Assembly: GCA_964603585.1 (NCBI GenBank)
Contig: CAZRVK010000003.1
Coordinates: forward strand, 67,693 to 131,692
Reading direction: 5' to 3'
Length of the DNA stretch: 64,000 bases
Source of the DNA: an uncultured Planctomycetales bacterium
Lineage (GTDB): Bacteria; Omnitrophota; Gorgyraeia; Gygaellales; Profunditerraquicolaceae
Shown here in pieces: positions 3,001 to 45,472 of this stretch. The first letter of the stretch is position 1; each line of letters starts with the position of its first letter. The notes below the pieces were generated by a model. The model ran no database searches. It worked only from the letters and a program-made list of their open reading frames with translations, and was not told the origin of the DNA. A program made the translations under genes and the position numbers.

Positions 3001-6000
3001 ATAAGAAGAGAAGAAGGAGTTAAAAGAGCCCGGGCGCAAGAGTTGTTAGATGGGATTTATTTGTTAGTCAGCCAAGGCCGATATAATGAGGCAAAACCTT
3101 TGGCTGTCGAGGCATATAATCAGGATAATATATTAAAACCAGTCGTGGCGTTGGTCAATAGCCCGATCGAACGGGGTGTATTTGAGGCAAGGCTTAGAGC
3201 CTTAGCGCAAGGGCTTAAAAGCCAAAGTAAAGACGATATCGAGGCTTCTTGCGGATATTTTATGAATCTTATCGGAGAATTCCCTCAAGCAGTAAGTTTG
3301 CTGTGTTCAAGGCTTGTATTCTCTATAGATACTACTTCTATCCAGGCAGATGAGGATATATCAGTCCTTTATCTTTTTTCCCGCCTGCCTTATGGGGCTA
3401 AGTCCCAAGATATGGTGGAGAGGGCTGTAGGGTTCATGAATTACGAAGGTTATCGCCAAGAGGATGTCCTTTCGGCAGGAAGGGAATTTTTCGAGTCTCC
3501 TTTTAGCGACGGCCTGATATATATGAATCAAAAACATGTAGCCCGGGCAACTTTTGAGGATAATAAATGGTCGATGTTGGCAAAATATTTAAACGAGATT
3601 GCCGCCTTCCCGTTATTAACCCGGTTAGGTGAAATTGTCTTAGGGGTAAGGGCAAGGTTTGCCAGAGAAGCATTGAAAAACGATGCTAAAAGAAGTCTGA
3701 TTGAATCTAATTTGAGGCTTGTAATAAGCTGTGCTAAGAAATATCGCTGGTCAGGATTGCCTCTTTTAGACCTGATCGGTAACGGTAATACCGGGCTTGT
3801 GAGTGCAGTAAACGATGAAAAATGGGATCCCAGCGAGGGGAAAAGATTCTCTACTTATATATACTGGTGGATCCGTCAAGCAATTTCAAGGTTTGTTGAT
3901 AATAACAAAGACCAAATCCGGCTTCCTCCGGATAAAGTCAGGGAGATAAATTTCCTGAAAAGCTCATGTGCCCGAAATGGCTTAGACCCTTTAAATAGGA
4001 AAGTTAGTACGGATGAGATCGCAGAAGCTATCGGCATGGATCCTAAAAAGGTAAAAGCTATTCGAAGAAATATGTTCTTGACGATCTCCCTGGACCAACC
4101 CCGGGGTCATAACAATGAGGATGGGCGAGAATCAAGTATTGCCGGTATTTTAGCAAGTAATGATGATGAGGTTGGCAGGATCCCTGATTTGCGTAGTGCT
4201 TTAATTAAAGTAGTTGAGACTACGGAGAGGCGTTTACGCCAGCGTTGGATGGCGGCTGCCGAGGAGAATATAGAAAGGGATCTTAAAATATTCAGGATAA
4301 GATTAGCCTCTTTATTAGGGCTGGGAGAACGCCAGACTTTAGAGGTTTTAGGCAAGGCTACAGGAGTTACCAGGGAAAGAGTTAGGCAAATCGAGGCTAA
4401 AGCTAAGCCGGTTTTTACCGAGGAGCTGCTTGCTTCCGGTATTACCCCGGAAGAGATCGAGCTGGTGCGCAGCGATTATCATGGAAAGTATTCTAAAGGT
4501 AAAAAAGGGGACGTTTCTAATTATTCAAGCCTAGTTTTAGCCGCGTCTACTACAGTCAGTTTAAACTTTTTACTTTTGATTATACTCGTGATATGCCTTA
4601 TGGCGCAATCCCCTCGTGGACCGCCTCAGGATAAAGTTGCGCAGGGATTTCCCTTAAGCGGCTTAACTCCAATTCCTAAGTTTCATCGTGAAGGCCTCGA
4701 TGCGAGCTTTTTTCCCATAGCAGAAATTTCCGAAGTTTTAAGATCACAAGACAAAAAAGGGTCCCTCGAAGTTACTATTACTGCGCATGAAGAAGGGAAT
4801 CTGCATATCTGTCTTGTTCTCATGCCGGTTAATGAGATCCTGGCAAAGATAGAAATGAGCAGGCAGGATTATATTGTAGTGACTAGGAAGAATCCAACGC
4901 TGCCGCGCGATATTACGGATATCATTATGAAGGATGATAGCGCTGTTAGAGAGAGTGAACCTTTTTGGGTGGGAGACGTAGTTGTTACCCGGAAGTATTA
5001 TACTGATCTAAATTGGATGGCCGCTGTTACGCATTTTTGGATTCATCCATTGCTTCGGCAAAAAGGGATTGGCGATTTGTGGTATAGAGGATTTGTCGAG
5101 CCATATATCCGGGAATGCGGTTTCGATATTGTTTTGGTCAGAGGAACATGCTTGGATGATTTATATATCAGTAATTTCTGGATCGACCAAGGTTTTTCTG
5201 ACACTGCTCCGTTAACCCAGTTGATCGGAGGCGAAACATTAATGGAATATGCTTCGGTAAAGAAAATTAATTCTTCTTCGCAAGCGCAGGATCTTGGAAT
5301 AATAAGTGGAACGGATGGACAGGGATCTTCGTTTTCCATTGGTACTCCATGGATTAGTACCCCGTTTCTATTCTTGTGCACTTTTGCTTTTCTTCTCTCG
5401 GTATTGTGGGCAACTGGGAATCCGCGCGGCCCGCCGTTTGCCAATCTATATATAGAAGAAGCGACATTAAATGATGTCGAAGAAATCGGAGGTATATTTG
5501 AGAGAGAGTTATTGCCTCTTTATGAGAACGATGTAGATGGCAGTCCATTATGGACAAGGAAACAATATGCATGCAGTATCCGTGATTCTATCTCTGGGAT
5601 AAGTGAAGGGCAGAAAACCAAAGGTATTGTATTGGTGGCTAGGGTGGACGGTCGCATTGCAGGATATGTGTCTGCATGTTTTTATCCTGGAAATAACTTC
5701 GGGGAAATAGATGAGATGGCGGTTGAGAAGGCTTATCAAAAACGTGGGATAGGTACAGCGTTGCTTAGCGGGGCGGTCTTTGCTCTTAGATCTATTCCAG
5801 GAATAGAAAGGGTTGTATTAACTGCGGATATATCTAAGGGCGGGAAAACAAGTAAAATTGCCCGTAAATTAGGGTTTCGCGCTAAAAATGACGCCATGAC
5901 ATTACGGCTTGATATGCCTGATGAGAAGGAGAAACGCAGTTCTCCGGTCGGCGGAGTAGTCGCAACAGAGAATATAGCCGAACCGAAGGTATTATTCCCG

Positions 6001-9000
6001 GTCTCAGAAATAGTAAAGCTTGATGCGAGCCTTCGCGAAGAAGCCTTTAATGTCGAGACGGTGCAAGGGGATCCGTTATTAAGCGCCAAAGATATCATTG
6101 GCTTCAATTTTGAGAGAATAATAGATAAATTCCGCACCTTTATCTTAAGGCATGACAAAGAAGAATTATCCAGTTTAACGCTTTGTCAAACAGGTGATGC
6201 AATATATTTTCGGATCCGTTTATCCGAGAGATTGAGGAACAAAGGTATCGGTAGGGTGTGGTTTTATCATATCCTTTTGCCTTATTTTTCAAGCCTTGCC
6301 GATTCAGGGATACAAGATATACGTACTTATTGGTACTGTTCGGAAGGCGGCTATGGCGATTTTATTATGGAGAAGTTGCATTTTCCTCATAAAAGAGCGA
6401 TACAGCTAGATACCTACGAAATAGTCTATTTTTGCGCATCAATGGTAAATCGAAATATACAGTCCCGACAAAGCACAGAAGATGGCCAGCGAACTCATTC
6501 TAATTACGCGTTCGCCGCGCCGCTTTTAGTTTTAAATGGACCTTGGGTGCCGAATATTCCGATAATTCCCTTGGGCATTATTATAGCCGGCTTGTTCTTA
6601 TTTTTAACGATCAAGCGTTTACCTGCAGGGGAGGATACATCCGTTTCAGTTCTTTCACGTTTTCTATCCCCGCAGAATGAACTTTTAGTGCTCATAAGTA
6701 ACGCGGACCGCTGGGCAAATTTTTATGACAAAATCGCCTTCCATACTCTTGTCAGGTTGTATTGGCGATTAAAAGGTTACAGGATCAAAATAATCAATGG
6801 GGCAACAAGGCGTAATCTGCGTGATGCCTTAAAAGATAACGGCGTAAAAAATATTGCTTTGACCGGACACGGGTCCTGGTCAAGCTGGGAGGCTTCTGAT
6901 GGGATTGTCAGTGAAGCGGACATCATCCGCTGGATGGGACCTGGCGTGGCGAAGAAGGAACTGTTTACAAAGTATTTCTGTGGCATCGGCGGAGATATTC
7001 CTCTAGGCTATCATGCGGTTAATGATCCAGAAGGCCAACTGTTTGGGACTATGCATGAGGCTAGTCAAAGTTGGTGGTTCGATAAACCAGGGCTATTTTC
7101 CTTAAGACAGCTCAAAGAGAATAAAGGCTTCTGGCTTTCATTCCTGCCGTCAAAATTATATGAGCGCTTGCAACGGACCGTTTTCGTTTTTATATTTCTT
7201 GAGACAGTTTCAGCTGTCATTGCCGCTGGCCTCATAAAGTATACTGATGCAACTATCCTTGCAAGTATATGGACAGGTTCATTGTGGGCGTTAATGGTAT
7301 TTGCGCCGGCTTTTATCGCTGCCTGGATATATCGCAACTGGGAATATTCAATAAGAGTTGGATTTGGGATATCCGCGATTGTTGCGGCTGGTCTTTTAAT
7401 GGCAAGCAGTTGGGTCTTTCCCGGGGTTGCGTTAATAAGCATCTTGGTTGAGAGGCATGGCATTGGTATGATTTTGGCTGTTCAATCATTGATTTTAATT
7501 GCCGGGATACTCTTATTGCCGTGTTTCTTCGGGAAAATCAAGGATAATGGTAAGCGGCAAGAAAGAGAAGAAAATAGGGTTAACAATGAGAAAAAAAGAT
7601 GGGCGCTATATGTCTTGCCAGCGATTGCTTTAGTAGCCGCGATAGCAGTTATTGTTGCACAACTTGTTTTGCCATCCTATTTCCTGCCTGTGGGCGCAGG
7701 CGCTGTTTTATCAGCCGAATTCCTTTACATTGCAATAGCGGCGCCTATCCTTGAAGAGATCGCCTTCCGGAATTTACTGTATAAACAAACGTTACGCAAG
7801 TTTTTCGGGGTGATTGTCTCTACAGCCATTTCCTCGTTTTTATTCTCGCTTACACATTTTGTATGTGAACGCGGGCTCGGCCTTTTGGATTTCGCCGTCA
7901 TGGTTACCTATGGAGTTGTTTTTGCCGTTTGTTACGAGAAAACAAAAAGACTGTGGGTACCCATGCTTTTGCATATGGCGAATAATTGCATACTTTATTT
8001 TGTCATTACATTCGGTTTGATAAACGGAGGGAATGTTTATGCGAGTTTATTGGGTTTACGGATAGTTCTTATCGGCCTTGTCAGCGCATGGCTTTTTGCG
8101 GGGAGAAAGAATTTTGTTTCTATCTTTGATCAACAGAGTAAACTCGACCGTGCTTTGGTTAAGGGGTATGAGTGGCTTGATGATAAAGTCTCGGCTTTTC
8201 TTAAATTGTTTACTTGTGCGTCTTTTTCGGTGCTCTCGGTATTGCGGGGAAGTCAAAATCCGCGCGGCCCTCCGCAGGATAAATCCGCTTCTCATCTATC
8301 TGCTTCTGCACGCCTTGATCTGGATAATGCGGTTAAAAAAGATGATTCTTATTCAATCCTTTCTGGGGTTTCATTGCCTACGCTTCTTGGCATTTTAAGT
8401 GTTTTTATGGTTACTATTTTGGTCCTTGGAATCATCGGATTGCGGGGAGCTTCTTGTAAACAAATTGTTAGATATAATGCAGGCAAACGGCCTTTGTCTT
8501 ATTCTGGGGATGATGCCCGCCCCTGCCGTGCATTAGTTCTTGATGACCGCAGGTCGAGGTTAGAAGAAGTTGAGCAAAACCTCGCTCGTTACGGATATCG
8601 CGGGGAGCAGTTTTATACCTTGCCTCGGGCAATGGCGGCTATGCGTAAGGCGCAACGCGAAGGCGTGCCTTACAAATTAGTAGTTACTGACCTTGATTTA
8701 GGGTGGAGCATTTTAAAGCCCCAGCTTGTGGTAGAAGGGTTACGGTTTGCAATATGGGTAAGGCAGGTTTATCCGCAAACCGAAGTTATCTTGAATTCTA
8801 CGCTTTTTAACCGGGGGAGTTATGCAGTAATGCTCCCTCTTGCCTTGGGTTTTCCTCGGAAAATTGAGATTTCCGGGATCAGTATTTTAGGTAAAGATAA
8901 TATATTCGCAGCATTTCGTGGCTTGGGAATGGATGAGTTCCATCAAAAATGGCTTATCCAGAAATGCCGGGAGCTTGCGGATTTGGGATATACTTTAGCA

Positions 9001-12000
9001 TACGAAAAATTTGAAGATGAAAGTAAGGGGTTTGTACATATTTGCCAGGTAAAGCAAAATGGAATTCTTCGCGGGGCATTGAGGATCGTTGAAACAGGCG
9101 ATACTTTAGGGATCCGCGATATTTATCCTAATTTGCCTGTCGGCCATGGATATGGCCGGGCGGTTTTATTACTTATGTTGATACGGCAAAACCGCTGGCA
9201 GGGGCGAGAATTTAATTCTTTGACCAGCAGTATCGTTGCCTGCCGGATGTTCCAGAGGATGCGCCGTTTTCGCATCGATATTAAGGAAATTGGGGATAAT
9301 TTCTGGCAGGTTAACGGGAGGGTTCCATATTTTAACCAGGGTGCTTTTGATGAAATAAAGAGTTCTGGTATCTATGAAAGCCACCAGGATGCAAAAAACC
9401 TGGCTTTTGCGCCTTTATTAGGCATGGAGTTATTGGCGCAGACAGGGTTAGGCTTCTTCGCCGGGAGTATGCTTTTGTTGTTTGGATGCCTACTTTTTGC
9501 TTATAATGTGCCGCAGGAGTTTTCTTTCAGCGGCTTAACTCCGGACCAGATATATCCGGCGTATGTCTCTCGTGTGGTTTCTGCTTTAGAGAGTATGGCA
9601 GAAAATCCTGCCGGAGGCAGGGGGCTGGATTTTCTTTTAAAATGGCCCGGTAAGTTAAGGGTTGGGGAGAGGATAGCTTTTCCTGTACATATCATTATCG
9701 GGCATCTGGATGAAAAGGAATTTTACCCCCGGCACAAAAAAGAGATCGCCCGTTATTTTCTTGCACGGGAAGATATTATGCGTTCTGCTTTATTGGTCAT
9801 GGCAAAAACCATAAAGTGTGCGGGCCAGCGAAACCGGCAAAGGGTTTTTGATATTTTCGCGGAAATGTTATATTCGGCCAACTTCCGGCAGCTGCGTAAC
9901 ATCCGCCGGATTTTGAGCCGGAAGATCTTCGAATCCCGCCGGGATATTGAATATAAGCGTGCGATCTTAGAGATGATGGCAAAAATGGATTATGGGTTTG
10001 CCAGCGCTGGCGGCGAGTCTTTTTCTTCTTTTGCACCGCTTGCTATGGCAACACCGGGTATCGGCATATTGTTTTTACTCTTATTGGCGGTAGTTATGTT
10101 TGCAGAGACGGGTATTTCTTTCGCGGATCAGGCTAAAGCATTTGGATTTTTTCCTGGAGAGTCCGAAGAAAATCATCTTTCTGGCAATGCCGCCAATATA
10201 TACGAGAGCTGTCTCACTTTTACTCATTCCAACAAAATTGCCCCGCAGCTTATGTTAAAGAATCCGGATATCCAGGATCATTGTCCGGAGCCTTCAAATT
10301 TCGTTATTCCTTCGATCATTTGGAATGAGACTTTTGAGTTAGCGGCATTATTTATAGTGATTGGTATTATCGGCGCAATATGGTTGTGGAAGAAACACAG
10401 GGACCATTCTATTTATTTGTCCTCTAACCTGGATGCTCCGTATATGCCGCAGGTTTCGACTAAATTTACTTCTTCAGAAAGAGAGGATATCGCCCAATCC
10501 GCTAAAAGAGTGTACGATCTATTTTCCGAGCGGCTTAATTTCAAAGATTCCCTAATGCTGAAAAGAAAACTACAGCAGGTTAAAGTAAGGCCTTTGCCTC
10601 AAAGACTGCATTTGCGGATGGCTTATTTATTATGGGCCGCCTGCGGGTTATTCTTGTTGTGCGGAATTATTTCTGCAGATAAACAAATAATATGGTATTC
10701 GGCGGGGATTGTATTCTTTGGCAATATCGTTGCTATGATTACATACCGTTTTGGATTTCCTCCGGGAGAAAAGCAGAGATCATGGTCAAATCGATATATA
10801 TATCTTGATCGAAATGACGCAAATTCATGGGATCTGGATTATGAGCTGATCAAATATATCTTCAGCCAATTCTATTATAGCCGGGACCCCTTGGTCTCTA
10901 CGGCTATAGCACATTCATTAATTCACCTGGATAGGCCCGGGATCGCCTCTTTAATGGATCTTTCAGGGTTTAAAGAGGATATTGCCGAAGGATTATTCTC
11001 GCCCGAGGCGGTAGTTAGTAATCTGGAGGTATTCTTGGCAGGCAAATGCAGCCAAGAAGAAAGCGTGCGCAGGCAGTGCCAGCGTTATTGCGATGCAATG
11101 CGTAAAGAAAATTATATTAGCGGACATGCGGCAGAGGCAGCCGCTACAACACTTGTCCTTTGGGATCTGTATGGGGTTGAGGTTGCGAAAAGTTTTATCC
11201 TTCAATATGCGGTTAGTAATTCTGTCAGCGAGGCATTATTCCTGGCTTTGTCCTTAGGAAAGCCATGGCAGCATAAAATGATGGCTTTTTATCGTCCGTC
11301 ATTGAGGTTAATATTAGAGTTATCGGTTTCAAGTGCTTTATCTGTAATTATGCTTATCCAGAATGAATATGCCCCAGCGTTATTGTTTGCGGCATATTCC
11401 TTGTATCGTCTTGTAGGTATATTCTTCCACAAACGGATTGATTTAATAGAGTTTTGCCAGGGGATTAATGAAGATAAAGCCAAGGCTATTGAGTTTCTTG
11501 CGCCAGGAAATGTATTGAGGATGATAAAGATAAATTATGATCAGGAGCATATGCCGTGGTGCAAAAAGGTGTTGGAAGAGTTCCAGACATTTATCGCAGA
11601 AAAAGGTGACTCCTTGTCTCCACCGGATATTCAATCAAAGGCGGCAGTGGATGAAGTGCTTAGGCGTATAGAGGCATCTTACGCCGCTAAGAGCGGCAGG
11701 AATTCCAGCTCTAATCATACATTCGCGGTTTTTCCGGTGGGGGCTGGTTTATTTATTCTTTTGCTGATAGCGGCAGCTATTTTGGCGATAACGCTAATAG
11801 CCAAAAGGGCAATAACCGGACTGCATTTATCGCGAGCCCCGCCCCAGGCTGGCAATTTGCATCATCAAATCTCTAAAAGGATACGTAATGTTGTAATTGT
11901 TACTTTGGTTTGTGCTCTCGGTATATCTGTAGTGTATTCATTAGGTGGGTTTAGCGCGTATTTTGCAGTAAAGAATTCACAGCCCGCGCACTCGCTGTTC

Positions 12001-15000
12001 TATTTACCTGCTGCGCTACTTGATATTGGTTTTGGCGTGATCACCTGGTTTAGCTGTGACGCCGCCGGACAATATCTTAATGAAGGCCGTATGATCCGCA
12101 AGAAACAAAGTTTGATCGTCGGTTTATGCGGGGTCTTTCAGGGAACACTTGCGCATGTTAATTTGAATATCCCCGACCTCTTGCCTGTATTGCCGAATCA
12201 TTTTGCGCAAATGATCTTTAGGACTTTTGTCGTGCTTGCCGGAGGGGTGATAGTTTCATTTATCTTTGCCCGCGCTACATCTTTCGGCAGGCAGATCACC
12301 TCGGCACCGCAATTCTCCCGGGAAAAAGAGTGGGGTAAAACCGGGGACCTGTTTTTGGCTAAATTTATTTTAGCCCCCTTAAAATCATTCATTGTGATCA
12401 ATCTATTCCCGCCTTCGGTCAGGGTCATCAGTATGCAGGCATGGGATTACTTAATGACGATCTTCTTTGCCTATCTTATGAACCGTAAAGAGCCGTTATT
12501 CCTGCCATTCTTTAGAAAGTTGTTTTCCTTTAGAAGCATTTCTGCTTTATCTATAGGTGCTGTAAGTGTATCTTTGCAGCCGGGATGCGGAGTGATGCAG
12601 GATTTAGGCGTTTTTCCCCTGTCCCACCCCGCGGTGGAATGCAATCAAAGGGATCCTTCCTATATAAATGTAAACGGCATAAACACCCGTTATTGCTCGT
12701 TCGGGCAGGGCCAGACGGTTATTTTTATCCATGGTTTCAATTCATCGCTTGAGGAATGGTTTTGTGTGGTTAATGGGATGGAGGATTCTTATCGGATTAT
12801 TCTTATAGACCTCCCGGGATTTGGAGATACACAGTTACCTCAAGGGTTTGGCTGTAATACCTCCGATTATACTGTTTTCCTTGATTCATTTATGCGGGCG
12901 CTTGGTTTAGAGAAAGCTTCGATTGTCGGTTTTTCTATGGGGGGAAAAATCGCCTGGAGTTTTGCTGTTAGTTATCCGGAGCGCGTAGAAAAACTTGTTA
13001 TTTTGGATGCCGCCGGATACAGCGATAAGATAGATGAGGCGCGGCTGCTTTTATGGCTTAGCGGTCGTATGGATTCTGCCGGTGCATGTATTTTGACATC
13101 AGATGTGTTGGATCCCAGCGCCAGTGGCCAGATATCCGAGATTTCTGTTCCCAGTTTGATCATCTGGGGTAGTGGTGATGTAGTGATACCTTTGAGTGAA
13201 GGCTTTCGCTTTGACCGGGATATCGCTTGTTCCGAACTCAAGATCCTTTTTGGCGCCGGGCATGGTGTTCTTTGGGAAAGGCCAGTTCAGATCAGGCAGG
13301 AGCTGTTAAGGTTCCTTCCTGTATATCCTGAAGCGATATGCAGCCCGGGGATGATGTATGCCTGCGGTGCAGGGGTCTTTGGCTCTTCGGTTATAATTAT
13401 TTTTATCTTTGTGCTGATGACAGCGGTTTGGGCCGTTGACCCGAAGGGCTCCGGGCAGGTTACGGGCCTTGATTTAGGGGTTAAAGAAAAAATGGTCTTA
13501 AGAGTGTTCGGGTTTTGGTTATCCCAGCCCAATGATACCAGTTGTGTTACTATACCGGCTTTACTAAGATTTGCTGGTTACCAGGACGAGATCCTTAATG
13601 ATGAAGCCGGCAACGCATTTTTAAGATTGTCACGGCAATGCCAATTGATCAAGGTTTGCGGCAAAGATATTTATTATCCGGCAGGCAAGAGTAAAGACGC
13701 GGAAGAAAAACGAGGATTGATCGTCAAGACAATCGCTTCCCTTGCCGGAGAATATACGGATACTCCCCGGGAACTGAATAGATTAGCGAAGTTAAAAGAT
13801 GCGTTATATGAAATTACTGTTGTGCGCGTCCTGGTGCGAGACGGCAGTATTTCAGGGTTTAGGGTGGCATATAAGGATAGTTTTGGTTTTGTGCCGTTTA
13901 CTCTGCGGCCTCGGTATGGAGAGTATGTTTTTAATCAATGGCAGGTCAAGGAATGGGAAGTCTTGATAACCGGAAAATCTTTTTCTGCCCGCCTGCATGA
14001 ATTAGGAGAATATGCCGGCAGGAAAAATCCGGTATTTAATATAAAAAATGAGCCGGTTAAAGAGGCTGATGTTCCTAAGAGGGATGATTTTAAGGGGGGG
14101 GTGGCTTTTGCCAGAAGTCCCGGTAATGCAAGGCATACATGGGATGATGAAGCATCTCAAACTGCATCGTCCGGCAACGTGTTATTGGCGGCATTAAGGG
14201 ATAATGATCCTAAAAAGATTCTCAATATATTAAGGCGGTTACTGCCGCTTGATTATGGCGCTGGATGGATCGAACAAATCTTTAACGCAGAACATGGTCT
14301 TCAAAGGCAAGTTGAGCTGATAAATATTTTTAAGGATCTCCTGCGGAATATCAAGCTCCAGGAACAGGAGATCCTTGTATTCGCCAGATTATTCTACCGG
14401 GTTCGTCCCTTGCAGGCAATAGAGGAGCTTCAAGAAGTAATATCCTCATCGGCTGACCCTTGCGCGCGCCTTATTGCCGCAGAGGCGATATTTAATTTGG
14501 ACCTCCAGGGCCGGGAAGAGATTTTCTTGCGCCTGTTTAATCAGCCGGAGATGTGTTTACAGGCCAGGGCTTTAGCCGCAAAGATGTATGCGCAAACCAG
14601 CGGCCGGGCGCGGGAATATCTGGGGCATTTTATTGCGCATGACAGCCGTGATCAGATGCGCCGGGCAGCCGTGATCGGTTTATATGATGCCGGAGGCCGT
14701 GCGCGCAGGATCTTGGAAAAAAGCCTGAAGATTTCATATGATCCCGCAAGCGGTGTTATCCAAGGAAAAGGGTTTACAGACGGTTTTGTCCAGCCATCTA
14801 ACGAGCCGGGGACAAACCGGCCAGACTGTTCTTATTGTTTTGTGCCTGAAGGGATGACGGTCGCCATGGGATTTGTCATAACATCATTGTTTTTGTTTGC
14901 GTTATGCATATTTATGATGGCAGATCGTTCTGGAGGCCTGCCGTTTACTTTTTCACAAGAGGAAGCGGAGGATTTAGCGGATTTAGAGGAGAAGATCAAT

Positions 15001-18000
15001 CGAGCTCCGGAAGGCGTAAGGCATAAGCTTAAACTGCTGGTAAGAGAGCTTTTTAAAGACAGTTACGGCATATCTTTTGTCAGGTATTTTGTTGATATTG
15101 TAATCGATAATAATCTTGTGGATTCGATCCCTAAAATCGAAGAGGCCCTGCCTTGCATAAAGGAGTTCAGGCAAAGGTTTGAAGCCGCTCAAATAGAGGA
15201 ACACTTCATTCGTTCAATACTAAAAATGATATTGGCCTCTAAAGATATTGTGGGGCGCCTGCAGATCGCTTTAGATGCGGCAGGGTCATTGATGGCAGCA
15301 GGTTTGAGCAATGTTCAGTCAGCCAATATTATTAATTTGCGTATAGGAGAAAATGATGCAGAAAAGCTAAAGGCCAAGTTTGAGGCAATAGCCGTTGAGA
15401 TGAAAATGCTTAGGCAAGCCTTGCAGGCCAAAGGGTTAGGGGATTATTTTATGGATTTTGCCGGGATCATCGTTATGCAGAATGATGTGCTTGCTAAGGC
15501 ACAAGCCATAAGGGATTCTGCAGATGAGCTAAAGGATCTGATCGATTCCTTGAAAAAGATAAAAATGGAAGATAACGGCGCATTCGTGATCTTGAGGGAG
15601 GTGATCTTGCAGCCAGATATAGGGGCTGCAGCGCAAAAAATAATCCTGGACGCAGTGAGTATAGGAGATCTTTACAGGCTTAAAGAGGAAGGAGCTTTTT
15701 CTCGCAGCGTTGTAAGGGTTGTTTTGCCTGACAATAGCAGTGCCTCTGCTTTTTTCGCAAGTATCGATCGCGGTTATTATTTTCTTTTGACTAATACGCA
15801 TGTGGTTGGCCGAGACCGGGAAGTTATGCTTTTAACCAATGAGAAGACTCCGCGAAAGATAGGAACCGCGCACGTTGTCCTGCGCAATAAGGTCATTCCC
15901 AGGTTTGATTTCTTTGAGAATTCCGATTTTAACGCAACATTCGAAGAGAATGAATTTACCGATATCGCGGTCCTTGCTATTTCTGTCAAGGATGTAGAGG
16001 ATAATTTAGTCGGTGCTTTAAAGGTGATTCCGTTCTCTACAAAGATTGCCGAGCATTCTTTTTGCGCTGCTTTAAGCGGTGCTAAGGATTATTTGGGGAT
16101 TGGGATGCTGGCTTGCGCAGACAAGACCATCATGCTTAACGGCGTAAAGAATACCCCGGGTGATTCTGGCTCTCCGGTAATCGATCAGGATGGAAACGCT
16201 GTGGCAGTTATCGCCAAACGCAACGGGGGAGCGTATCTTATTACCGAGAGCGTAAAAAAAGGGCTTATCGATGCCGTTTTCGGCAGGGAATCAGAATTTA
16301 TCCCGGTAGCTGACGACCCGGATGAGCTTTTAGCCGTCCGGGAATTTGTTTTGAATATCCCTGCCATTGAAAATGAGGACATTTTAACCGGTGGGCAAAG
16401 GACGCCTGTTTCATTCATGGCTGCGCCGGTAGAGATCCTTACTAATCTGGCTTTAAGCTGGTGGATAGGATGGGGATTTTTGAATGCGGAGGTCTTACGC
16501 GCGGTAGGGATCCAGGTATCTCATGTGATAGATGTCACGCGTATTTTTATCCCGGATGTTTCAAGCCATGAAGATAGAGGCCTGAAGATCTTGCCCGGGG
16601 ATGATCTGGCCAGAGTGTTTGCCGATAACCAAAATCCGATTGTGATCGAAGTCGGGTTCGGCCGGGGGTTATTACTTGTCGAAATGGCTAAATCTAACCC
16701 CGGGATCAATTACGTTGGGGTCGAGTCCCAATTGTGTTTTGTCGAATTATTGAACCTGGAAGCTAAGCGTGCACAGGCGGCAATCGGCAATTTAAGATTA
16801 ATTGCCGCAAATGATATTACCACATTCCTGGAACAAAGGCGCCGCAATATCGTTTCCGAGATTTATTATATTGCGCTTAATCCGCGCCATGATGCGAATG
16901 CGATAAATACCCCGGCAGGTTTTAAGGCGATGGCAAGCTTATTAAAACCAGGGGGCAGGATATATATATCCACTGATACGCCGTTGTGTGAAGAGGCCTT
17001 ACGGTTATTCCATGAAGGATGTTTTAAAGATGTGACAATGGATCATAAGTTTCCCCATGCTTCAGAAGATTACGATGGTTGCGAGAACTTTAAATACGTT
17101 TTTGAGCGTAAAAAATCCGAAGAGGATAAGGTTTCTTTTATCCTCGGAGCCTTTGGCGCAGGCCAGGCCAGTGAGTTGCCGATAATGTCGGTAGTAAGTT
17201 TATTTATTCTTGCCGCAGCAATTTTATTTATCATTCAGTATGCCGTAGATTATAAAGGCACAAATCGTTTCGGCGAAGAGGCTGCAATGAATGAAGAAGT
17301 GGCTGGCTTTATCCGCAGTATAGAGGATGATTTCTTCCGCATTCTCGAAGAAGAAGGGCTGAATGATCATCCGAGATACCGCTGTATTATTGCCTCTAAA
17401 CTGCTGGCCTTCATTCTTACCGGGCATTTTGGCCTTCCGATCGGAGGCAATAATCCGGACCGCATTGAGGTGGTTCCCGGGTTTTACCGGATAAGGGATC
17501 AAGGCGGCCGTTATCATCACTGGATCGCCATTTATTTTAAGAATAAACCGGCACTTTATATTGATGCTGCGTATGGACAGTTTGATGAAGCCTGCCAATC
17601 TAAGATTATCGTGGGCCTATATCAGGATGCGGTATCCCGGTATGAGCTTACGGAGTCAAAGGATAAATTTGCGCAGATCCTTAAAGAAGAGGGGCTGGAC
17701 CCGGAATATGCTCCTTTAGCCGTTACAATACGCCCCGAGTATTGCGAGTTCTTGCGTGATACCCGCATCCGAAAAGGGGAATTGACCAATCTTGGCCGGG
17801 AAATAGAGACAAAGATCGAAAAAGCCTGCGCCGCATTTAAGGCTAAAACCAAAGAAATTAAAGAGCGGCAGAGGCAAATGGTTTCGCATGAATTAGCGGG
17901 TTGTTATCTGCATCGGTATAAAGGTCGGGTTATTCTGATCGGCGGATCCACCGGCAGCCTTGAGCCGATCAAAACTATCCTCAATAAACTGAAAGTGCCT

Positions 18001-21000
18001 TTTCCTCCGGTTATTGTCGTTAAACATTGTGTTGAACCTGATGTTGCTTTGGGCATGATCAAAGATCTTCATCTGTCTGCGCAGATAATTAAAGGCGGTG
18101 AATTGATCCTGCCGTCAAAGGTATATTTTGCCGTTTCCGGCAGGCAGCTAAATTTCGCAGAAGACGATTATGGGTACCGCCTGCGGTTGTTAAGAGCTTC
18201 AAGCAGTAAGCTCGGGTTTGTTCCGTCTATTGACAAATGCTTTAAGTCAGCGGCGAGAATTATTGGTTCGGATACAGTTGGAATAATCTTAAGCGGGTGG
18301 GGTGATGATGGGGCAAAAGGGATCGTAGATATCTATGAGGCAGGAGGGTTGACGATTGCGCAGTATCCGGAAACCTGTTTAAGGCCGGATATGCCGCTAT
18401 CGGCTATTCAGACCGGAGAGGTTAGCCATATTTTAGTCCCGGAGGCGATCGGAGATCTTATTGCTCAAAATAAAGAGCGGCCCGGGGAATTTGCATATTG
18501 TCTTATGTTTCTGCCTATCACGGCCTTTATTATTGCTTTGTTTTATTTGTTGCTGGATCCGTTTAAGTTTGCACAAGGAGTGGGGATTTCTTCGCAAGGT
18601 TTAATTAATGATAGTAATGAAAACATGGTTTGGCGGATAAAATTTTTAATGAAAAAGCGAGGTTGGAACGCATCCGGGCTTGTACGTGAAATTCATCGTA
18701 AGGCAATAGCCTTAGGCCAACTTCCGGAAACCACTCCGGAGGCGGTATGGCGCTGGCTTACTGGAGAGCACCATCCGGATATAAAGATAATCCCTGTATT
18801 AGCTGCGGCATTAAAGGTTGATCCTTGTTGGTTGGTTTCGGGCCTGCCTTTAGCGGCTGCGATGCGCCAGGAGGTTTTGCTTCCTAATGAGAAGGAAAAA
18901 GCCGGTTCAAGCTTGGGCAGGCGGGTGTTAATTTTACGCTGGGTGCGCGGGATGACATCGGTAGAACTTGCCAGGCGGGTTGGGATGAGCCTGGGTAACC
19001 TCAATAATATCGAACAGCATCTTAAAACCTATCCGCGTCCTGTATATATAGGTAAGATTGCCCAGGCCCTGGGGGTAAGTCCGGCATTGATCCTGACAGG
19101 CTTTGAACGGAACCACGTGATCGCAAACCTTAAATATCCAAAGGACAGATTTTTATTTTTGCGATTATGTGCCTGTATGACCCAGGATGAGCTTTGGGAG
19201 AAATTAGTTGATCAATATGGAGCGGATATCGAAGGCCGGCCAACCGTGGCGCAATGGGAACGGGGCGTTGTTCCAGACGCGCCGCATATAAGAAAAGCGC
19301 TTAGCAGGCTGTATGGGGTATCTTGGTCCAGGTTGAGTGCGGTTAACCAAAACGGTAAAAGGCTTAGTGAATTCATGGAACTGGAGGCGGTTGCAAAGAC
19401 GCGTAATTATTTCGCCAAGATCATTGATTCTAATCTGCCGGATTCCTCGATTGTAGTACGTTTCCCAGCGATTGTAAGCGATATTATCATGGCCGATCAA
19501 ATCGGTTATGATATTGGCCCGGTAGTCAATATACTCTTTGATCTGGTGAATAAAGATGTAAATGGCAAAAGGGCAGTCCGTATGAAGAAAATACTCCATG
19601 CCCTGGATTTTTACCAAAAACTTTTTCTTCTGCGGGCAGGGACATGGAGGGCCAGGGATGAACGGGCAAAATATTTTGCCAGCGTTGTACTCAAAGATCT
19701 TTTGAAAAAGATAAACGATTCTGGTTTAGGCAATAACCAGACGGCAAAGATAGCCCGGCAGGTTTTTTGGTGCGACATCGTAGATTTTTTAAGCGGCAAT
19801 CGCGGTAGAGAAAGTGCGGTTAAGTTCATTGAAGCGCAAAAAGATGCAGCCGTAGGTTTAAGTAGGGGACAATTGAATGGTTGTCCGGGTATCTGCCGCA
19901 GTCTTATGAATAGATATGGATTTATCAATATCGCTTTACGCCTGGGTTGGCCGATAGAGGGGATAAATTCTGGTCCCGGAGAGTTTGAAAATAACGCACA
20001 AGGATTTAAGAAACGGGTATTTGATTTTTACATTCGTAATCAACGTTTTCCTAAAGTAGAAAAAGGGGGATTAAAGGAGTCTGATGTTTGGGTGATCGAG
20101 CTTTCTAAATCGCTTCTTGGCGGCAGTCTTGCGATGTTCAAGCTAAGGTTTTTCGAAGAATTCTCCGATCAGATCAAAACATTGATACGGCGCTCTACTC
20201 CTACGGTCAAGAAACGCATGTATGCAGAATTGTTGAGCGTTTTGCCTTTTGACCGCGATGCACTGGAATTTGTATCGCAAGATGCCGTGGAACGCGCAAA
20301 AGATGAGGCGCGCATGCGTAAGATCGTGCGCGATTTTGATACTAACGTCAGGGTTTATCATTGGTATGATTACAACCTTGAAAATGATGAAAGGATATCC
20401 GAGGCGAAAGCCTCGGCTGATATGATCGTAAGTTACTCTGATTTCGGCTTGCTTTCTTCGGCGCAGCTTGTGGGTTTGTGGAGTGAAATGAAAAGAGGGA
20501 ATTCGATTGCCCGCAATTTCATTATGGATTCAAATACCGGGCTTATCGTTTCTTCAGCCCGGGATATCGCAAGGCGGCCGTTAGCGCGGAATATCAGCGT
20601 CGCGGAACTGCGCAATGAAGGGTGGTTTGGCCTGCGTATTGCCGCAGAAAGGTTTGATCCGGCACGCGGGAATAAATTTTCTACCTATGCGATGTGGTGG
20701 GTGATGCAGGCGCAGACACGGATGTGCCTGTACGGCGGCAGGACGATACGTGCGGATCCTGCCAAGGTCGCGCGTTTTTATCGTCTGCGGCAGAAATTAG
20801 CTGAACTTGATGGTGCGGGTTTCGAACAAAGGGCCAAGAAGAGTTATGCCATTATTTACGATAAGACTAAAAGGGAAGCCGATAAATTACGGGAACTTTT
20901 GGCAGGCGCGCTGAACACGAAGTCTCTAAGCGATAAAGTAGGTGCAGATGACGATGGTGCTATATTCTCGGAGTTTGTCGAGGATGTAAAATCCGAGGAT

Positions 21001-24000
21001 CCGGAAACTGCCGCAGGGATTTTCGATGAACGTGAATTTGTCAGGGATTGCCTCAAGCAAATGCCTAACGAAAGGGAAAGAAGGATACTGGAACTGCGCT
21101 ATGGCATTAACCCGCCTACTTTGGAAGAGTGGGGGATATTAAAAGGCCAAAAGCTCGGGCTTACGCGTAATCCTCTTAACGGATGGCCTAAAGGCAGGGA
21201 CCATTTAACTTTAGAAGAAGCAGGTTTGATTTACGGCATTACGCGTGAGCGTATCAGGCAGGTTGGCAAAAAAGCAGAAGAGCATTTTGCCGCGATCGTT
21301 CAGGTTTGCCGGCCTAAGGTTTGCGCTGGCCAAGGATCCGATCCGCATCGGAAAAAACCCGGGCAAACTCCCACAGAGGTTGATATGCAGGAAGATCTGC
21401 TTAGTTCCGGTTCACCTGTTGATAAGGATCCGTATCTTATAGAAGCAATCGATGAAGCACAGAGCCGCGTAGGCAGTAAAGATAGTAAAGTAATGATTGC
21501 ATTGCAGCAGTTACGGGATACTCTTGTTATTCGCGCAGGGCCGTTTAAATACATCTGGGGCGCATTTCGCGGACAAACCCTTTTTCTGGAAGAAACCCTT
21601 TTAAATGATCCTGCCTTACGTTTTGATCTTCTCGTAACTTTGATCCATGAGGCGCGCGTTATCGCTTATCCTTTAGCCAAAGATGAAGAAAATGAGACTT
21701 TTGCCCAGGATTGCATGAATTGGCTGCGTGAAGGGCTGGGGTTGGAATTTGTAGTCAAGGACCACGGGGCAAAGGATCTTGGTCCGGTGATTTATAAAGG
21801 GACTTTTTGCGATATCGCTTTGGATATTCCCGGTTATGCAAAACGCGGCATTAGTGTCCCGTTTATTTTGGATGTTACCCAGCACATGCCGCAGGGGATA
21901 TTTGAAATTATAAACCCCTTTGAGGTTAATAGCGATTGCGGCGGCAAAGGAGGTCTTAAGGAACTATTACAGGTTTGCCATCAGTACGGAATGCATCCGG
22001 TGGCGCCTGCGATCTTCAATCATATTTCTCGCTTTAGCCCTCTTTGCCGGGATCAACCCGGGTGGTTCATTCGTGACCGCCATGGTAAGATCATGTCTGC
22101 TACTGACCGGCGCCATGACGGGGTCTATTCCTGGGAGTGGCGGAACCTTGCGCAATTAGATTTAACTAACCCAAAAGTCCGGGAGTTTATTTTACAGATA
22201 GCGCGGCATCTTATTAACCTTGGTTTTGACGGTCTTTGGTTGGATGCCGCAGGTGCTTTATTAAATAGGAACATCAAGCGCAACTGGACAGATCTTTTAA
22301 GCCCGGGCGTCGGCTCTGTGATGCAGGAAGAGTTGATCCCGCAAATCTTACGCCAGATCCGCAAAATTAAACCAGAGGCCAGGCTGGTTGCCGAATCTTT
22401 TGACCCCCAGGATCGTAAAGAACTGGAGGGTATGGGGGTTGATTTAACCATGGATTGGGAGGCGATCGAAGCCATAAGCGATACATTCAAATGGCCAAAC
22501 TCTTCCAAACTTCGAGATGTCTTAAATAGCGCTTATCGGCTGAACCTGGAGAGACGGATACTCCATCGGCTTAATCATGATAAATCGGATTCCCGTACTC
22601 ATTCTGTTCATTTCTCGAGAGAAGAAGTGTCATTTACCGCGGCATTTATGGCGGCTTTGCCGGGAGCTTTCTGGTGGTTCGAAGGCGAATTGGAGGGCCG
22701 GGATTATTTTTATCATCGCAGAGGTGTAATTCCTGTTTCTTCATCGGATGATGATAAAGAATTAGCAGGTTTTTATGACGGGTTTTTAAGGTTGGTTTCA
22801 CGCCCGGTATTCCGCAGAGGTGAGTTTTATATCCTTCAGGCGAAAAACCCGGGGGATTTGATTTCTCCTGTTTGTGCCTTTGCCCGTAAACTAAAAGATG
22901 AATTGGTTATAGTGGCAGCTAATCCCAGCGTCTTTAAAGGCAATGACGGATTGTCCTGGGCAACTTTTAATCTGGAAGGCCTTATTGGTTCTGAAGATTG
23001 CGATTTTCTGGTTGAAGATTTATTGACCCAAGAACGATTCCCAGGGGTTTCCTCCCAGGTTATCCGCCGCCATGGTTTGCCGGTAGGGGTTAAGCCTAAG
23101 GGGGTGCAATATCTTAAATTGACCAGGAAGGACACCTTTGGTACAAGTAATGTTTCTTCTTTTACTTTGGGCTTATTTGCCGGGCAGGTCCTTTCAGGGC
23201 CTTTTTTAGCCTTTGCCTTTGCGATCATTTGCTTAATGTTGATAATGCCCCAATATGCGGTTGGAGTATCGGGTAAGGTTATTAATTCAGCAAATATGGG
23301 GGGAGAAAAAGAAAATGACTATTTATCTTCTCCGCATCTGCCGTATCGGTATGTTACTTTTAAATCGGATCATTTCTATGCCATTACAGCGCTTTGCGGG
23401 ATTAAATCCCTTCCTATGGATATCCAGCCTGCCTGCGGCGGGGTGGTGTTTAGAGAATATCCCGGGTGTGATCTTTGCGAGCAGGCGGTGGTCAGTTCTG
23501 CGAAAGAAGAAGCCAAAATATTAGCAGCGGAAACTGACCGGATATCCGCATTGTGGAATATTTATTTAAGAGGCGCGGCAACCGTGATCATTTCAGACGG
23601 AAAAATAAGCAAAAAAAATGTTTTATCTGTTTGGGCGCGGTATTTAGCGGCAAGAAAAATGCTGGGGTGGCGCTATATAGTTACCTCCGATCTGGGGACA
23701 ACCGAGCAGGATATGAATGTTATCCGAGATAGTGCTTATGAATCGGCCCTGCAGGGATATCTTGGCCGCGGGCATATTAAACGTTATGCTAAATCCCGGA
23801 TAAAAAGGATTTTACGCCAAAAGGATTGGGAAAAGCTTGACCATGGTCTTTCCTGGAGGTTAAAGTTGATCAATCCGGCTGCCGGAGCAACCGAGGACAG
23901 GGGGGGGTATCCGCCTTTTGCTTGGTTATTGGGAGGGATCAGTTTAGTCTCGGTGATCAGGATGGTGTTAGGTCTGAAGGATTATTCCGAAGTCACGAAC

Positions 24001-28244: not shown

Positions 28245-28366
28245 GGGATGGTTTTTGAAGAAAAAACCTTGAAATATTGATAAATGTATGTTAAATTTTA
28301 GTATTGTCTTTACTGCCTAAAAACGGCTTTTTGCATACCTATACTAATGTAATCTGGAGAGGATAA

Positions 28367-29671: not shown

Positions 29672-29689
29672 TTCGGATTATCACTGCAC

Positions 29690-30571: not shown

Positions 30572-30573
30572 AA

Positions 30574-33731: not shown

Positions 33732-33808
33732 AAAGGAGGCAGCAAATTAAACCTAAATATAGAAATCCAATATTAGTAATAGCAACTAAATACAAGGAGG
33801 TTGTAGCG

Positions 33809-37891: not shown

Positions 37892-37913
37892 TCCCTCCGC
37901 TTCAAAACATCCC

Positions 37914-37942
37914 TTGACTTATAATCAGCTATTCGTTATAAT
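37914..37942 (+). promoter_or_regulatory. Near-consensus sigma-70-type promoter upstream of the first PilB-like gene
   Basis: TTGACT (37914..37919), 17-nt spacer, TATAAT (37937..37942). Flanked by an imperfect inverted repeat TTGACTTATAA ... TTATAAcacAAGTCAA. Confidence 0.5.
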
Positions 37943-37965
37943 TTTTTATAACACAAGTCAAAACA

Positions 37966-39669: not shown

Positions 39670-39689
39670 CCTTAAAGAGAAATTTATAT

Positions 39690-41396: not shown

Positions 41397-41401
41397 ATAT
41401 T

Positions 41402-45418: not shown

Positions 45419-45472
45419 AAGTGGTTTTTAACGCCGGGATGATTAAAACAGGAAACTTAAGCCAAATTAATC

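Follow-up and report, generated by a model that had tools for sequence, protein, structure and literature searches.

Two sigma-70-type domains embedded in an Omnitrophota-type giant protein that may be a processed polyprotein

Sigma factors are known from textbooks as small, free, diffusible specificity subunits. In the RseA-DegS-RseP and RsiW-PrsW-RasP systems a membrane-linked proteolytic cascade frees a sigma factor which is held, as a separate protein, by an anti-sigma factor; PrsW, the site-1 protease for its anti-sigma factor, is a distant relative of the CPBP superfamily. In Bacillus, pro-sigma-K and pro-sigma-E are inactive, membrane-associated precursors activated by the membrane-embedded proteases SpoIVFB and SpoIIGA, respectively. 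Long chains of modules occur in viral polyproteins, which carry chymotrypsin-like proteases, and in the MARTX toxins, which carry an internal autoprocessing protease. The CPBP-type enzymes MroQ, MrtJ (JDVT-CTERM system) and the myxosortase MrtZ cut at a short motif next to a transmembrane (TM) helix that is followed by basic residues. IutY of Pseudomonas putida is a single-polypeptide sigma/anti-sigma protein, the sigma domain of which is freed by Prc and RseP (PMC5411451). The subject of this work is a giant open reading frame (ORF) in a 64,000-nucleotide stretch of contig CAZRVK010000003.1 (assembly GCA_964603585.1, positions 67,693 to 131,692 of the forward strand; hereafter the window), in which a preliminary description of the DNA had noticed two sigma-70-like modules within one membrane-spanning protein.

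In the giant protein, as in IutY, one and the same polypeptide contains a sigma domain and a segment that spans the membrane; in IutY, proteolysis frees the sigma domain and activates it. IutY is a small protein with a single TM helix, an extracytoplasmic function (group 4) sigma domain and an anti-sigma domain located in the periplasm, it is triggered by a siderophore and it depends on separate proteases, whereas the giant has group 1/2-like sigma units, no anti-sigma domain, candidate proteases of its own and more than 9,000 amino acids (aa). The pro-sigmas of Bacillus differ in that they are group 3 sigmas of Firmicutes, have a short pro-peptide of about 20-30 aa at the N-terminus, depend on proteases encoded by genes of their own and form no polyprotein. 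The PDZ-S1C and M50 proteases that define the RseA-DegS-RseP type are absent from the giant. With the viral polyproteins and MARTX toxins it shares unrelated modules in one chain, short recurring motifs between the modules and an in-chain protease; it differs from them by the hydrophobic helices at its junctions and by its cargo of bacterial regulators, including sigma factors, and its processing is presumed. Its junctions have the shape of the sites cut by the CPBP sorting and maturation proteases, but MroQ, MrtJ and MrtZ act on separate proteins which carry their signals at the C-terminus, and not on junctions within a chain.

Giant proteins of Omnitrophota have been published before. They have numerous TM regions, and the possible cleavage of the products was raised as a question (bioRxiv 10.1101/2023.11.21.568195); a "multi-enzyme" class was distinguished among them, in which many Pfam domains occur, none of them dominating, and a TM helix is found about every 300-370 aa, and the function and topology of which were left open (bioRxiv 10.64898/2026.06.07.730766). 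The published giants are largely predicted to have a signal peptide plus TM helices or a signal peptide only and were read as prey-targeting (both references), while the TM-only ones were read as inner-membrane-anchored proteins with cytoplasmic domains (bioRxiv 10.64898/2026.06.07.730766). The present protein resembles a member of the multi-enzyme class: many Pfam domains are tiled along the chain without a dominant one, with GNAT, methyltransferase, HEAT and regulatory content. With at least 9.1 thousand aa it lies just below the 10-thousand-aa catalogue threshold of the published class, unless the ORF continues upstream, and the C39 and S8 peptidases and SecA-like domains stressed for the published giants were not found in this ORF. 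Its assignment to the phylum is based on the taxon labels of the proteins closest to its sigma unit. In view of IutY, of pro-sigma-K, of the sigma labels that NCBI gives to relatives and of the published giant-gene class, the absence of any precedent, as it was put in the preliminary description, was overstated.

The giant ORF is stop-free from the left edge of the window, where it is open, to its stop codon at 27433-27435 (Table 1). Frame 1 contains no stop from base 1 to 27433, while 581 and 689 stops were counted in the other two forward frames (over 28 kb), thus 9,139 stop-free codons could not be attributed to chance. The base composition and the GC skew are uniform along the whole length of the ORF. 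Two independent Logan assemblies (SRR15237810, SRR15237811) proved to be 100% identical to window positions 17540-30369 and 21856-28333; the identical stretches include the second sigma unit and the stop codon, and cover the 3' 9.9 kb of the gene and 12.8 kb in all. We conclude with high confidence that an Omnitrophota-type mosaic protein is encoded here by one gene. The ORF probably extends beyond the left edge of the window, and since its first 57 residues resemble an internal junction, a further module upstream is suggested. Relatives of the N-terminal 495 aa were not found in the genome and metagenome collections, and no internal duplication was found by self-BLAST of the protein. At least 15 domain-sized soluble modules lie between hydrophobic helices, roughly one per 300 aa, in addition to polytopic regions, and at least 12 distinct domain families were recognised in the Pfam and NCBIfam scans of the whole ORF. 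Two antisense ORFs, 24120-24596 (-, 158 aa) and 26604-27263 (-, 219 aa), lie wholly within the giant ORF and are most likely spurious shadow ORFs.

That two complete sigma-70 modules are in-frame parts of this protein was confirmed by Pfam, by TIGR02937 and by comparison with the Protein Data Bank (PDB), all within the one stop-free ORF. The modules had been reported about 17 kb apart, and the starts of the two units are indeed separated by 16.9 kb; the interval 3525-21290 assigned to them corresponds to aa 1170-7092, and all four strings quoted from them were located (FSTYIYWWIRQAISRF at aa 1278-1293 and TRERVRQIE at aa 1452-1460 in unit 1, FSTYAMWWVMQAQTRM at aa 6888-6903 and TRERIRQVG at aa 7076-7084 in unit 2). 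When the Sigma70_r2/r3/r4 hidden Markov models were applied, region 2 was above the cut-off in both units, while region 4 was above it in unit 2 and just under it in unit 1. In unit 1 (aa 1190-1463) Sigma70_r2 scored 43.6 bits (cut-off 24), r3 27.7 (25.3), r4 22.7 (24.1) and r1.2 20.6 (22), the last also just under its cut-off; in unit 2 (aa 6850-7087) Sigma70_r2 (PF04542) scored 36.9 bits against 24 and r4 (PF04545) 32.7 against 24.1. The NCBIfam sigma-70 superfamily model TIGR02937, with a cut-off of 42.9, gave 67.5 for unit 1 and 57.1 for unit 2. In phmmer comparison with the PDB unit 1 aligned with residues 60-333 of RpoS (E=1.1e-35) and unit 2 with SigA (E=3.4e-27), the latter with an insert of about 30 aa ahead of region 4.2. 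Region 4 of unit 1 aligns through region 4.2 of RpoS with TRERVRQIE conserved, despite its sub-cut-off PF04545 score. The AlphaFold2 model of aa 1091-1485 had a mean pLDDT of 86.4, and its top Foldseek matches were sigma factors within holoenzyme structures. Both units fell far under every cut-off of the RpoD, RpoS and RpoH equivalogs of NCBIfam, the best scores being 170.5 against 378.7 for unit 1 (rpoS_proteo) and 112.2 against 384.5 for unit 2 (Sig70-cyanoRpoD).

The region 2.3/2.4 sequence is FSTYIYWWIRQAISR in unit 1 and FSTYAMWWVMQAQTR in unit 2. In the positions of -10 recognition and melting (Y430, W433, W434, Q437, T440 and R441 in the numbering of E. coli sigma-70) the residues are Y, W, W, Q, S, R in unit 1 and Y, W, W, Q, T, R in unit 2; the recognition residues, the loss of which upon proper alignment had been named as a ground for doubt, are conserved in both units. 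The Y425 position is occupied by K in unit 1 and by N in unit 2. The DNA-recognition residues FSTY..WW..Q..[ST]R and TRER.RQ are kept in both units as well as in the consensus of the family described below. Region 2.2 contacts the beta-prime coiled-coil and has the canonical form DLIQEGNxGL. Unit 1 has DLIGNGNTGL here and unit 2 ELRNEGWFGL, with D, G, N, N and E, N, E, W, respectively, in the core-binding positions D403, Q406, E407 and N409. These changes bear on the core-binding residues, the loss of which had likewise been named as a ground for doubt. The relationship between the two units is only distant (E=2e-10). Judged from sequence and alignment, both are genuine group 1/2-like sigma domains. 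A helical N-extension (consensus ..LDF.S..N.A.L..L.ELP.EYK..FLDYKG..AG..FF.SIPDE..) directly precedes region 1.2 of unit 1 and is absent before unit 2; its interpretation as a sigma 1.1-like or anti-sigma-like domain was ruled out by its ARM/HEAT fold. Just after unit 2 a short "HEA" element (…VIRAGPF…LIHEARVIAYPLAKDEENETFAQ) was observed at window 21553-21765 (aa about 7180-7250), matching an element (…VRAPP…LHEASxLAYP..DE.NE.FAQ) which stands ahead of each of the three sigma units in one relative, P0002.

An exhaustive HMMER search with aa 582-1504 as query was carried out against 1.84 billion representative proteins. The top matches, ahead of all ordinary sigma factors, were proteins of 2,000-6,375 aa; the match lies inside them and reaches about 130 aa upstream of region 1.2, i.e. 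takes in the N-extension. The 34 embedded modules were nearly all found in proteins of 600-9,139 aa, as compared with about 250-1,600 aa, mostly less than 650, for 232 canonical sigmas; the smallest complete family members have about 780-816 aa. Often 2-4 sigma units are present in a protein, with up to three or four in P0002 and P0020. The embedded unit recurs across many independent metagenome-assembled genomes (MAGs) and metagenomes, and all of the taxon-labelled members (13/13) belong to Candidatus Omnitrophota, where relatives of 1-3.6 thousand aa already bear the NCBI label "sigma-70 family RNA polymerase sigma factor". On this comparative basis the ARM/HEAT-like N-extension together with sigma regions 1.2-4.2 is a distinct and so far undescribed family, which includes unit 1 and is found almost always within proteins of 0.8 to more than 9 thousand aa. 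Outside the sigma unit the giant shares with its relatives XRE-type helix-turn-helix (HTH) modules (P0030 and, more weakly, P0050, the own HTH of which is detected by Pfam), the TrmB-like methyltransferase (P0028 matches the Methyltransf_4 segment directly, and the same Pfam family stands beside the sigma unit in P0272) and a few small pieces. Since little else is in common, the giants have to be regarded as mosaics reusing the sigma unit and not as orthologues. In the texts of 10.1101/2023.11.21.568195 and 10.64898/2026.06.07.730766 and in one supplement, sigma-70 domains, XRE HTHs and the junction motifs are not mentioned, and a full-text literature search linking Omnitrophota, sigma factor and giant returned nothing relevant. 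The embedded ARM/HEAT plus sigma unit, its multiplicity in giants and the lineage-specific junction motifs are not described in the literature searched; the gene class itself and the NCBI annotation labels are already known.

In complete members the typical N-terminus, as judged by inspection, has a basic n-region and then a hydrophobic core; an A-x-A-like site comes next, with [AT]L[ARSV]P behind it. Such signal-peptide-like starts were seen for example in P0001, P0004, P0012, P0016, P0026, P0032, P0050, P0067 and P0272, with YALRPIAA, YGLAP and AQALAP among the strings observed. At many C-termini of the family the last residues are -AA or -SA, which recalls degrons of the ssrA type. Several relatives could be described individually. 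P0050 (MGH7198068.1 in NCBI, Ca. Omnitrophota) has 3,286 aa and an XRE HTH about 270 aa after its sigma unit. P0151, a cluster mate of one HMMER match, has 7,587 aa and comes from a JGI contig of 64,944 bp. A 9,642-bp locus (L022, Ga0272444_10006897) contains a complete ORF of 2,774 aa with two N-extension plus sigma units. Another one (L047, Ga0116247_10001753) contains the complete P0272 of 2,762 aa, in which Sigma70_r2 and Methyltransf_4 are paired as in the giant, with VWA, TPR and AAA proteins as neighbours. The string PLLT..GE was tried as a family signature and rejected as not specific, about 38 of 42 metagenome pattern matches being ordinary sigmas of 300-490 aa; E. coli sigma-70, too, contains LLTREGEI. 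A word-indexed protein search with the N-extension and sigma unit as query returned canonical primary sigmas only, and no match was obtained in this type of search when a 5,000-aa query or the N-extension alignment was used, though the collection contains these giant proteins. The giant ORFs seem to be effectively invisible to the word index, and surveys built on such an index would miss the embedded-sigma family.

The membrane-spanning character ascribed to the protein stands as far as hydropathy goes: 28 strong hydrophobic segments (Kyte-Doolittle at least 1.9) were found in the 9,139 aa, about 30 helices overall. Thirteen of the 28 are single helices dividing large soluble segments. Hydrophobic helices flank the sigma units, and about 30-40 aa lie between region 4.2 of unit 1 and the start of the next one. 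The uncharged stretches at the junctions are 22-47 aa long, mostly 29-40, and rich in Pro and Gly. Parity counting of the TM helices as a way to place the sigma units was abandoned, since the count is uncertain by three and the anchor provided by the CPBP orientation by one helix. The CheB domain, the segment containing the HTHs and sigma unit 2, and the C-terminal dehydrogenase/methyltransferase segment (S-adenosylmethionine (SAM)/NAD type) are each divided by a single helix, and all of them are domains of cytoplasmic type. With this single-helix spacing they could therefore not all be cytoplasmic in an uncut, canonically threaded chain. Either the chain must be cut, or the helices must be non-spanning anchors, or half of these modules must lie outside.

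Short peptide motifs recur around the single helices, the helix being preceded by the consensus S-x-[YF]-[SA]-[FSI] and followed by NPRGPP. In an unbiased Gibbs search, applied to the 34 residues upstream of each of the 13 single helices, S-[NS]-[YF]-[SA]-[FSI]-[LA] was recovered with a score of 188.9, as compared with a control maximum of 180 (40 runs). PRGPP occurs three times and is accompanied by the variants SHGPP and SRAPP, each at most 6 residues past the helix end, and the chance of this positional coincidence is about 8e-6. Since the copies use different synonymous codons, it is the peptide and not the DNA which is conserved at PRGPP. By resemblance, PRGPP and SRAPP could be likened to ribosome-arrest motifs of the SecM/RAPP type, to 2A-like NPGP skipping or to the N|P autocleavage of FlhB at NPTH, ideas which we leave unsupported. 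The junctions were rejected as prepilin (class III) signals, since they have no Gly at -1 and no Glu at +5, unlike the pseudopilins encoded in the window itself (KKAFTL[FI]E). Their interpretation as internal signal peptides with A-x-A sites was not supported either, Ala being at -1 in 5 of 13 by an objective rule (p about 0.1). SGLTP was observed twice, 10-20 residues past a junction helix, at window 4657-4671 and 9529-9543 (aa 1548-1552 and 3172-3176), and it resembles the GL[AS]P found after the N-terminal hydrophobic segment of P0004, P0016 and P0025. This likeness hints at an origin of the junctions from an internalised N-terminal leader of the family.

Recurring motifs of other kinds were found in the sigma-bearing relatives, where the corresponding signal is much stronger than in the giant. 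P0151 contains 24 copies of [SN]LDNGG with a spacing of 150-530 aa, the last one ahead of its terminal sigma unit, and P0050 contains 8 copies of SGARLA with a spacing of 170-570 aa, of which the sites at 1576 and 2018 bracket the N-extension and sigma unit (sigma 1722-1990). Cuts at SLDNGG or SGARLA in these relatives would give sigma proteins of ordinary size, about 440-540 aa. Such lineage-specific motifs bracketing sigma units look like polyprotein processing sites and lend circumstantial support to processing. The [SN]LDNGG copies of P0151 look like cleavage or linker sites; the Asn-Gly pair invariant in them is chemically labile. Each of these copies stands in a polar or basic linker, between segments which were recognised by eye as glycosyltransferase-, dehydrogenase-, methyltransferase-, phosphoribosyltransferase- and M23-peptidase-like, and 13 copies of LDNGG were noted in P0008, a cluster mate of P0151.

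Two protease-type domains had been recognised in the chain besides the sigma units (Table 1). The CPBP intramembrane protease was verified: the motifs EExxxR, FxxxH and HxxxN are intact (EEIAFR at aa 2580, FSLTH and HMANN), and the nearest NCBIfam models are all under their cut-offs (MroQ 47.7/270, MrtJ 46.8/75, MrtZ 21.4/325). Of the trypsin-like, DegS-like domain the trypsin-like part holds by its signature, the triad motifs TNTH5262V, D5316IAVL and GDS5384GSP being complete, in order and each present once in the protein, while its Pfam score is insufficient and the likeness to DegS fails, no PDZ domain being present. A weak Pfam match to the arterivirus Peptidase_S32 (E=0.0095) was below the threshold. 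The XRE-type HTHs were substantiated. The receiver-like domain was not, Response_reg (PF00072) reaching 13.4 bits against 30.2 (E=0.087), with no PDB sequence match at E of 1 or less. HEAT repeats were also detected in the protein, and the amylase-like barrel shares one inter-helix segment with sigma unit 2. All enzyme modules score far under the cut-offs of the housekeeping equivalogs, which makes them specialised paralogues. A small domain (ADNRPGK..WNYGL....I..LL...Y.....W FI.QV..HES), of which P0020 and P0002 have several repeats each, was observed in one weak copy near the C-terminus of the giant (window 26551-26709, aa 8846-8898), matching P0018 and P0020 with E of about 1e-5.

Table 1. 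Features of the giant ORF and of its surroundings in the window.
Feature	Residues (aa)	Window position	Strand	Evidence or remark
Giant ORF	at least 9,139 aa	1..27435	+	no in-frame stop; 3' part matched by independent assemblies
First junction-like element: NPRG, GSFSFLP, hydrophobic helix, SHGPP	16-57	61..186	+	looks like an internal junction
ARM/HEAT-like helical N-extension before sigma unit 1	1094-1185	3295..3570	+	conserved across the embedded-sigma family
Sigma-70 unit 1, regions 1.2-4.2	1186-1470	3571..4425	+	Pfam, NCBIfam, PDB phmmer, AlphaFold2/Foldseek
Junction after sigma unit 1: VSNYSSL, hydrophobic helix, QSPRGPP	1500-1537	4513..4626	+	
Junction: SSFSIGT, helix, GNPRGPP	1768-1808	5317..5439	+	
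GNAT acetyltransferase domain	1868-1955	5617..5880	+	Pfam Acetyltransf_1 46.8 bits vs 20.7
CPBP (Rce1-like) intramembrane glutamic protease, polytopic	2385-2700, core 2567-2659	7168..8115	+	Pfam PF02517 68.8 bits vs 22.4
Hydrophobic segment, then QNPRGPPQDK, directly after the CPBP region	2725-2754	8188..8277	+	
Segment probably meant by "receiver-like" in the preliminary description	about 2840-2930	8533..8805	+	not confirmed
Alpha/beta-hydrolase domain	4234-4440	12715..13335	+	Abhydrolase_1 94.2 bits; NCBIfam matches under equivalog cut-offs
Trypsin-fold serine protease-like domain	5244-5398	15745..16209	+	Trypsin_2 23.9 bits, under the 27.6 cut-off
TrmB-like (Methyltransf_4) SAM methyltransferase domain	5539-5617	16630..16866	+	Pfam, NCBIfam
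CheB-type methylesterase domain	5973-6149	17932..18462	+	CheB_methylest 118.2 bits; under CheB subfamily cut-off
XRE-type HTH array	about 6205-6440, best copy 6311-6358	18628..19335	+	HTH_3 (PF01381) 43 bits vs 23
Sigma-70 unit 2	6811-7091	20446..21288	+	Pfam, NCBIfam, PDB phmmer
Alpha-amylase-like (GH13-type) TIM-barrel segment	7296-7463	21901..22404	+	Alpha-amylase 24.5 bits vs 22
PrmC/HemK-like SAM methyltransferase domain, near the C-terminus	8957-9048	26884..27159	+	MTS 30.5 bits; RF_mod_PrmC 41 bits, under equivalog cut-off
Flanking genes: PilZ, ABC sugar importer, GH2-like hydrolases, two T2SS-E ATPases, GGDEF-AAA-HEAT; T2SS-F, canonical pseudopilins, PilM/N/O, secretin		27540..57393		

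Taking the topology argument, which we regard as robust, together with the junction motifs and with the two in-chain proteases, both intact, we tentatively prefer the reading that the giant is a processed polyprotein releasing sigma units which act as alternative sigma factors. The giant would be synthesised as a membrane-inserted precursor and cut at the conserved junctions into separate products, either by its own CPBP-type protease, by its trypsin-fold protease or by proteases of the cell. Once free, the sigma units, which have about 450-900 aa including their extensions, would bind RNA polymerase as alternative sigma factors, and a transcription programme would thereby be coupled to the synthesis and processing of the giant. 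We infer cleavage, release, binding to core RNA polymerase and the site of action of the sigma units from the features described above. Self-processing had already been suggested in the preliminary description; this part of the suggestion is supported by the junction motifs, by the bracketing of sigma units by motifs in the relatives and by the intact proteases, while its DegS/RseP mechanism is not.

Several points weigh against release of active sigma factors from a cut precursor. The statistics of the junction motif are modest, the trypsin-like domain is under the Pfam cut-off, and the helix count between the sigma units (about 30 +/- 3) is too uncertain for assigning membrane sides. Most relatives have no TM helices near the sigma unit, or an N-terminal helix only, and many have no obvious junction motif or protease. 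Binding to RNA polymerase is not assured, because Q406/E407 of region 2.2 are replaced by G/N in unit 1 and by N/E in unit 2, where W also stands in place of N409; conservation of Q406/E407 is about 30% in the embedded family, as compared with more than 90% in the 232 canonical sigmas. The signal-peptide-like N-termini of the relatives suggest export and not cytoplasmic action. The preliminary description had named a predicted extracytoplasmic location of the sigma-like segments as evidence against its hypothesis, and by this measure the same N-termini would argue against a self-contained cytoplasmic signalling device.

These N-termini would be accounted for by an exported, prey-directed effector array of MARTX type. 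The giant and its relatives would then be modular proteins, secreted by a predatory or episymbiotic Omnitrophota cell or exposed at its surface; built-in proteases would free the modules, and RNA polymerase in bacterial prey would be redirected by the sigma units in the manner of phage sigma factors. We regard such an array as unlikely. It agrees with the secretin-containing cluster resembling a type II secretion system (T2SS) or type IV pilus, the sugar importers and the glycoside hydrolases adjoining the gene, with the prey-targeting role proposed for the published giants, most of which are predicted to have a signal peptide, with the diversified core-binding residues and the several divergent sigma units per protein, and with the scores of every enzyme module far under the housekeeping equivalogs. 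However, the signal-peptide likeness of the relatives was judged by eye, and the N-terminus of the giant itself is outside the window. About 30 hydrophobic helices and the polytopic enzyme domains indicate that at least part of the chain stays in the membrane of the producer, no delivery route into the prey cytoplasm is known, and the one cultured relative preys on an archaeon, where a bacterial sigma factor would be useless. The broader proposition appears still more doubtful to us, that Omnitrophota pack sigma factors along with XRE repressors, acetyltransferases and methyltransferases in giant polyproteins, exported or membrane-inserted, which would be cut at lineage-specific motifs (NPRGPP in the present giant, SLDNGG and SGARLA in relatives), and that the freed sigma units enter bacterial prey or hosts and take over their RNA polymerase, as in a MARTX-like cellular effector array with transcription-machinery cargo. 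The topology paradox could also be solved without cleavage, if the junctions, possibly as re-entrant hairpins, pinned an uncut scaffold to the membrane with its modules in the cytoplasm, the sigma units either recruiting RNA polymerase and promoters to the membrane or forming an inactive reservoir there. Long, uncharged, Pro/Gly-rich junctions suit hairpin anchors, the ARM/HEAT scaffolding stands ahead of the sigma unit, region 4.2 is separated from the next helix by a linker of about 30-40 aa, which could permit binding of RNA polymerase at the membrane, and the published reading of the TM-only Omnitrophota giants is of this kind. On the other hand, the conservation of the junction motif at the peptide level and the bracketing of sigma units fit processing sites better, two intact proteases are built in, and no sigma factor is known to function with thousands of residues fused to either side; an uncut scaffold therefore also seems unlikely to us.

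The interpretation put forward originally was a device of signal-regulated intramembrane proteolysis, in which the trypsin-like domain corresponds to DegS (site 1), the CPBP domain to RseP (site 2), and the receiver and the HTHs provide the control. Both protease-type domains are found in one chain with the sigma units, PrsW provides a relative of the CPBP superfamily acting as a site-1 protease, and IutY demonstrates that intramembrane proteolysis can free a tethered sigma factor (PMC5411451). The scans of the whole ORF revealed, however, no PDZ domain, no Peptidase_M50/RseP and no anti-sigma domain, CPBP does not belong to the family of site-2 proteases, and the receiver was not confirmed. 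The proteases are about 1,100 and 3,800 aa away from sigma unit 1, in separate inter-helix segments, and the sigma units of the family are mostly without TM flanks, therefore membrane tethering with intramembrane proteolysis is not a conserved feature. The analogy with DegS and RseP is accordingly dropped, and we consider a device of this kind improbable. An assembly chimera, or a relic of fused, decaying genes with non-functional sigma-like segments, could be suspected from the relaxed conservation of region 2.2 in the family, from the enzyme modules being under the equivalog cut-offs and from the independent assembly check, which begins at 17540 and leaves the 5' 17.5 kb to the source assembly. 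This is very hard to reconcile with 9,139 stop-free codons against about 600 stops per alternative frame, with the uniform composition and GC skew, with independent assemblies identical over 12.8 kb, with intact catalytic and DNA-recognition residues and a confident AlphaFold2 model, or with the recurrence of the sigma unit in many independent MAGs and metagenomes, and we find an artefact or relic highly improbable.

The embedded family with its ARM/HEAT-like extension occurs almost only inside proteins that are thousands of residues long, several units per chain, and its host phylum consists of ultra-small, host-dependent bacteria. If the sigma units of the processed polyprotein are released by cleavage, this would represent a bacterial cellular polyprotein strategy, in which a transcription programme is tied to the making of a giant membrane protein. 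In the case of export, the sigma units would be the first effectors of sigma type outside phages. In either case the question posed by the giant-gene papers, whether the chain stays in one piece or is cut, and where, becomes directly testable, since the junction motifs are concrete candidate cleavage sites and the sigma units offer an easy functional read-out (RNA polymerase binding, promoter-specific transcription).

Giant genes of Omnitrophota reportedly adjoin T2SS-like and sugar-import genes according to the 2023 abstract of West-Roberts et al. Such a neighbourhood was described by Nielsen & Lui (2026, bioRxiv 10.64898/2026.06.07.730766, section 21), and both the T2SS-like and sugar-import neighbours and the TM density of the present giant match the published class. 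A PilZ-domain protein (27540-28244) begins 105 bp past the stop codon of the giant, and a GGDEF-AAA-HEAT protein of 1,338 aa (41402-45418) lies inside the T2SS-like cluster; since PilZ and GGDEF proteins are nearby, control of the adjoining secretion or pilus system by cyclic di-GMP is suggested. Two tandem T2SS-E/PilB-type ATPases with MshEN domains are located within 37966-41396. Four pilin-like ORFs with canonical class III signals (KKAFTL[FI]E, RGFSLLE, GGFTLLE) were found between 47248 and 54886, and two large ORFs (816 and 980 aa) have pilin-like hydrophobic N-termini and no Pfam match. No prepilin peptidase was seen among the window ORFs of at least 150 aa. Over window 1-54886 the ORFs of this size are all on the + strand, the shadow ORFs excepted, and since the GC skew is positive in every 2-kb bin, the whole region lies on the leading strand of one replichore.

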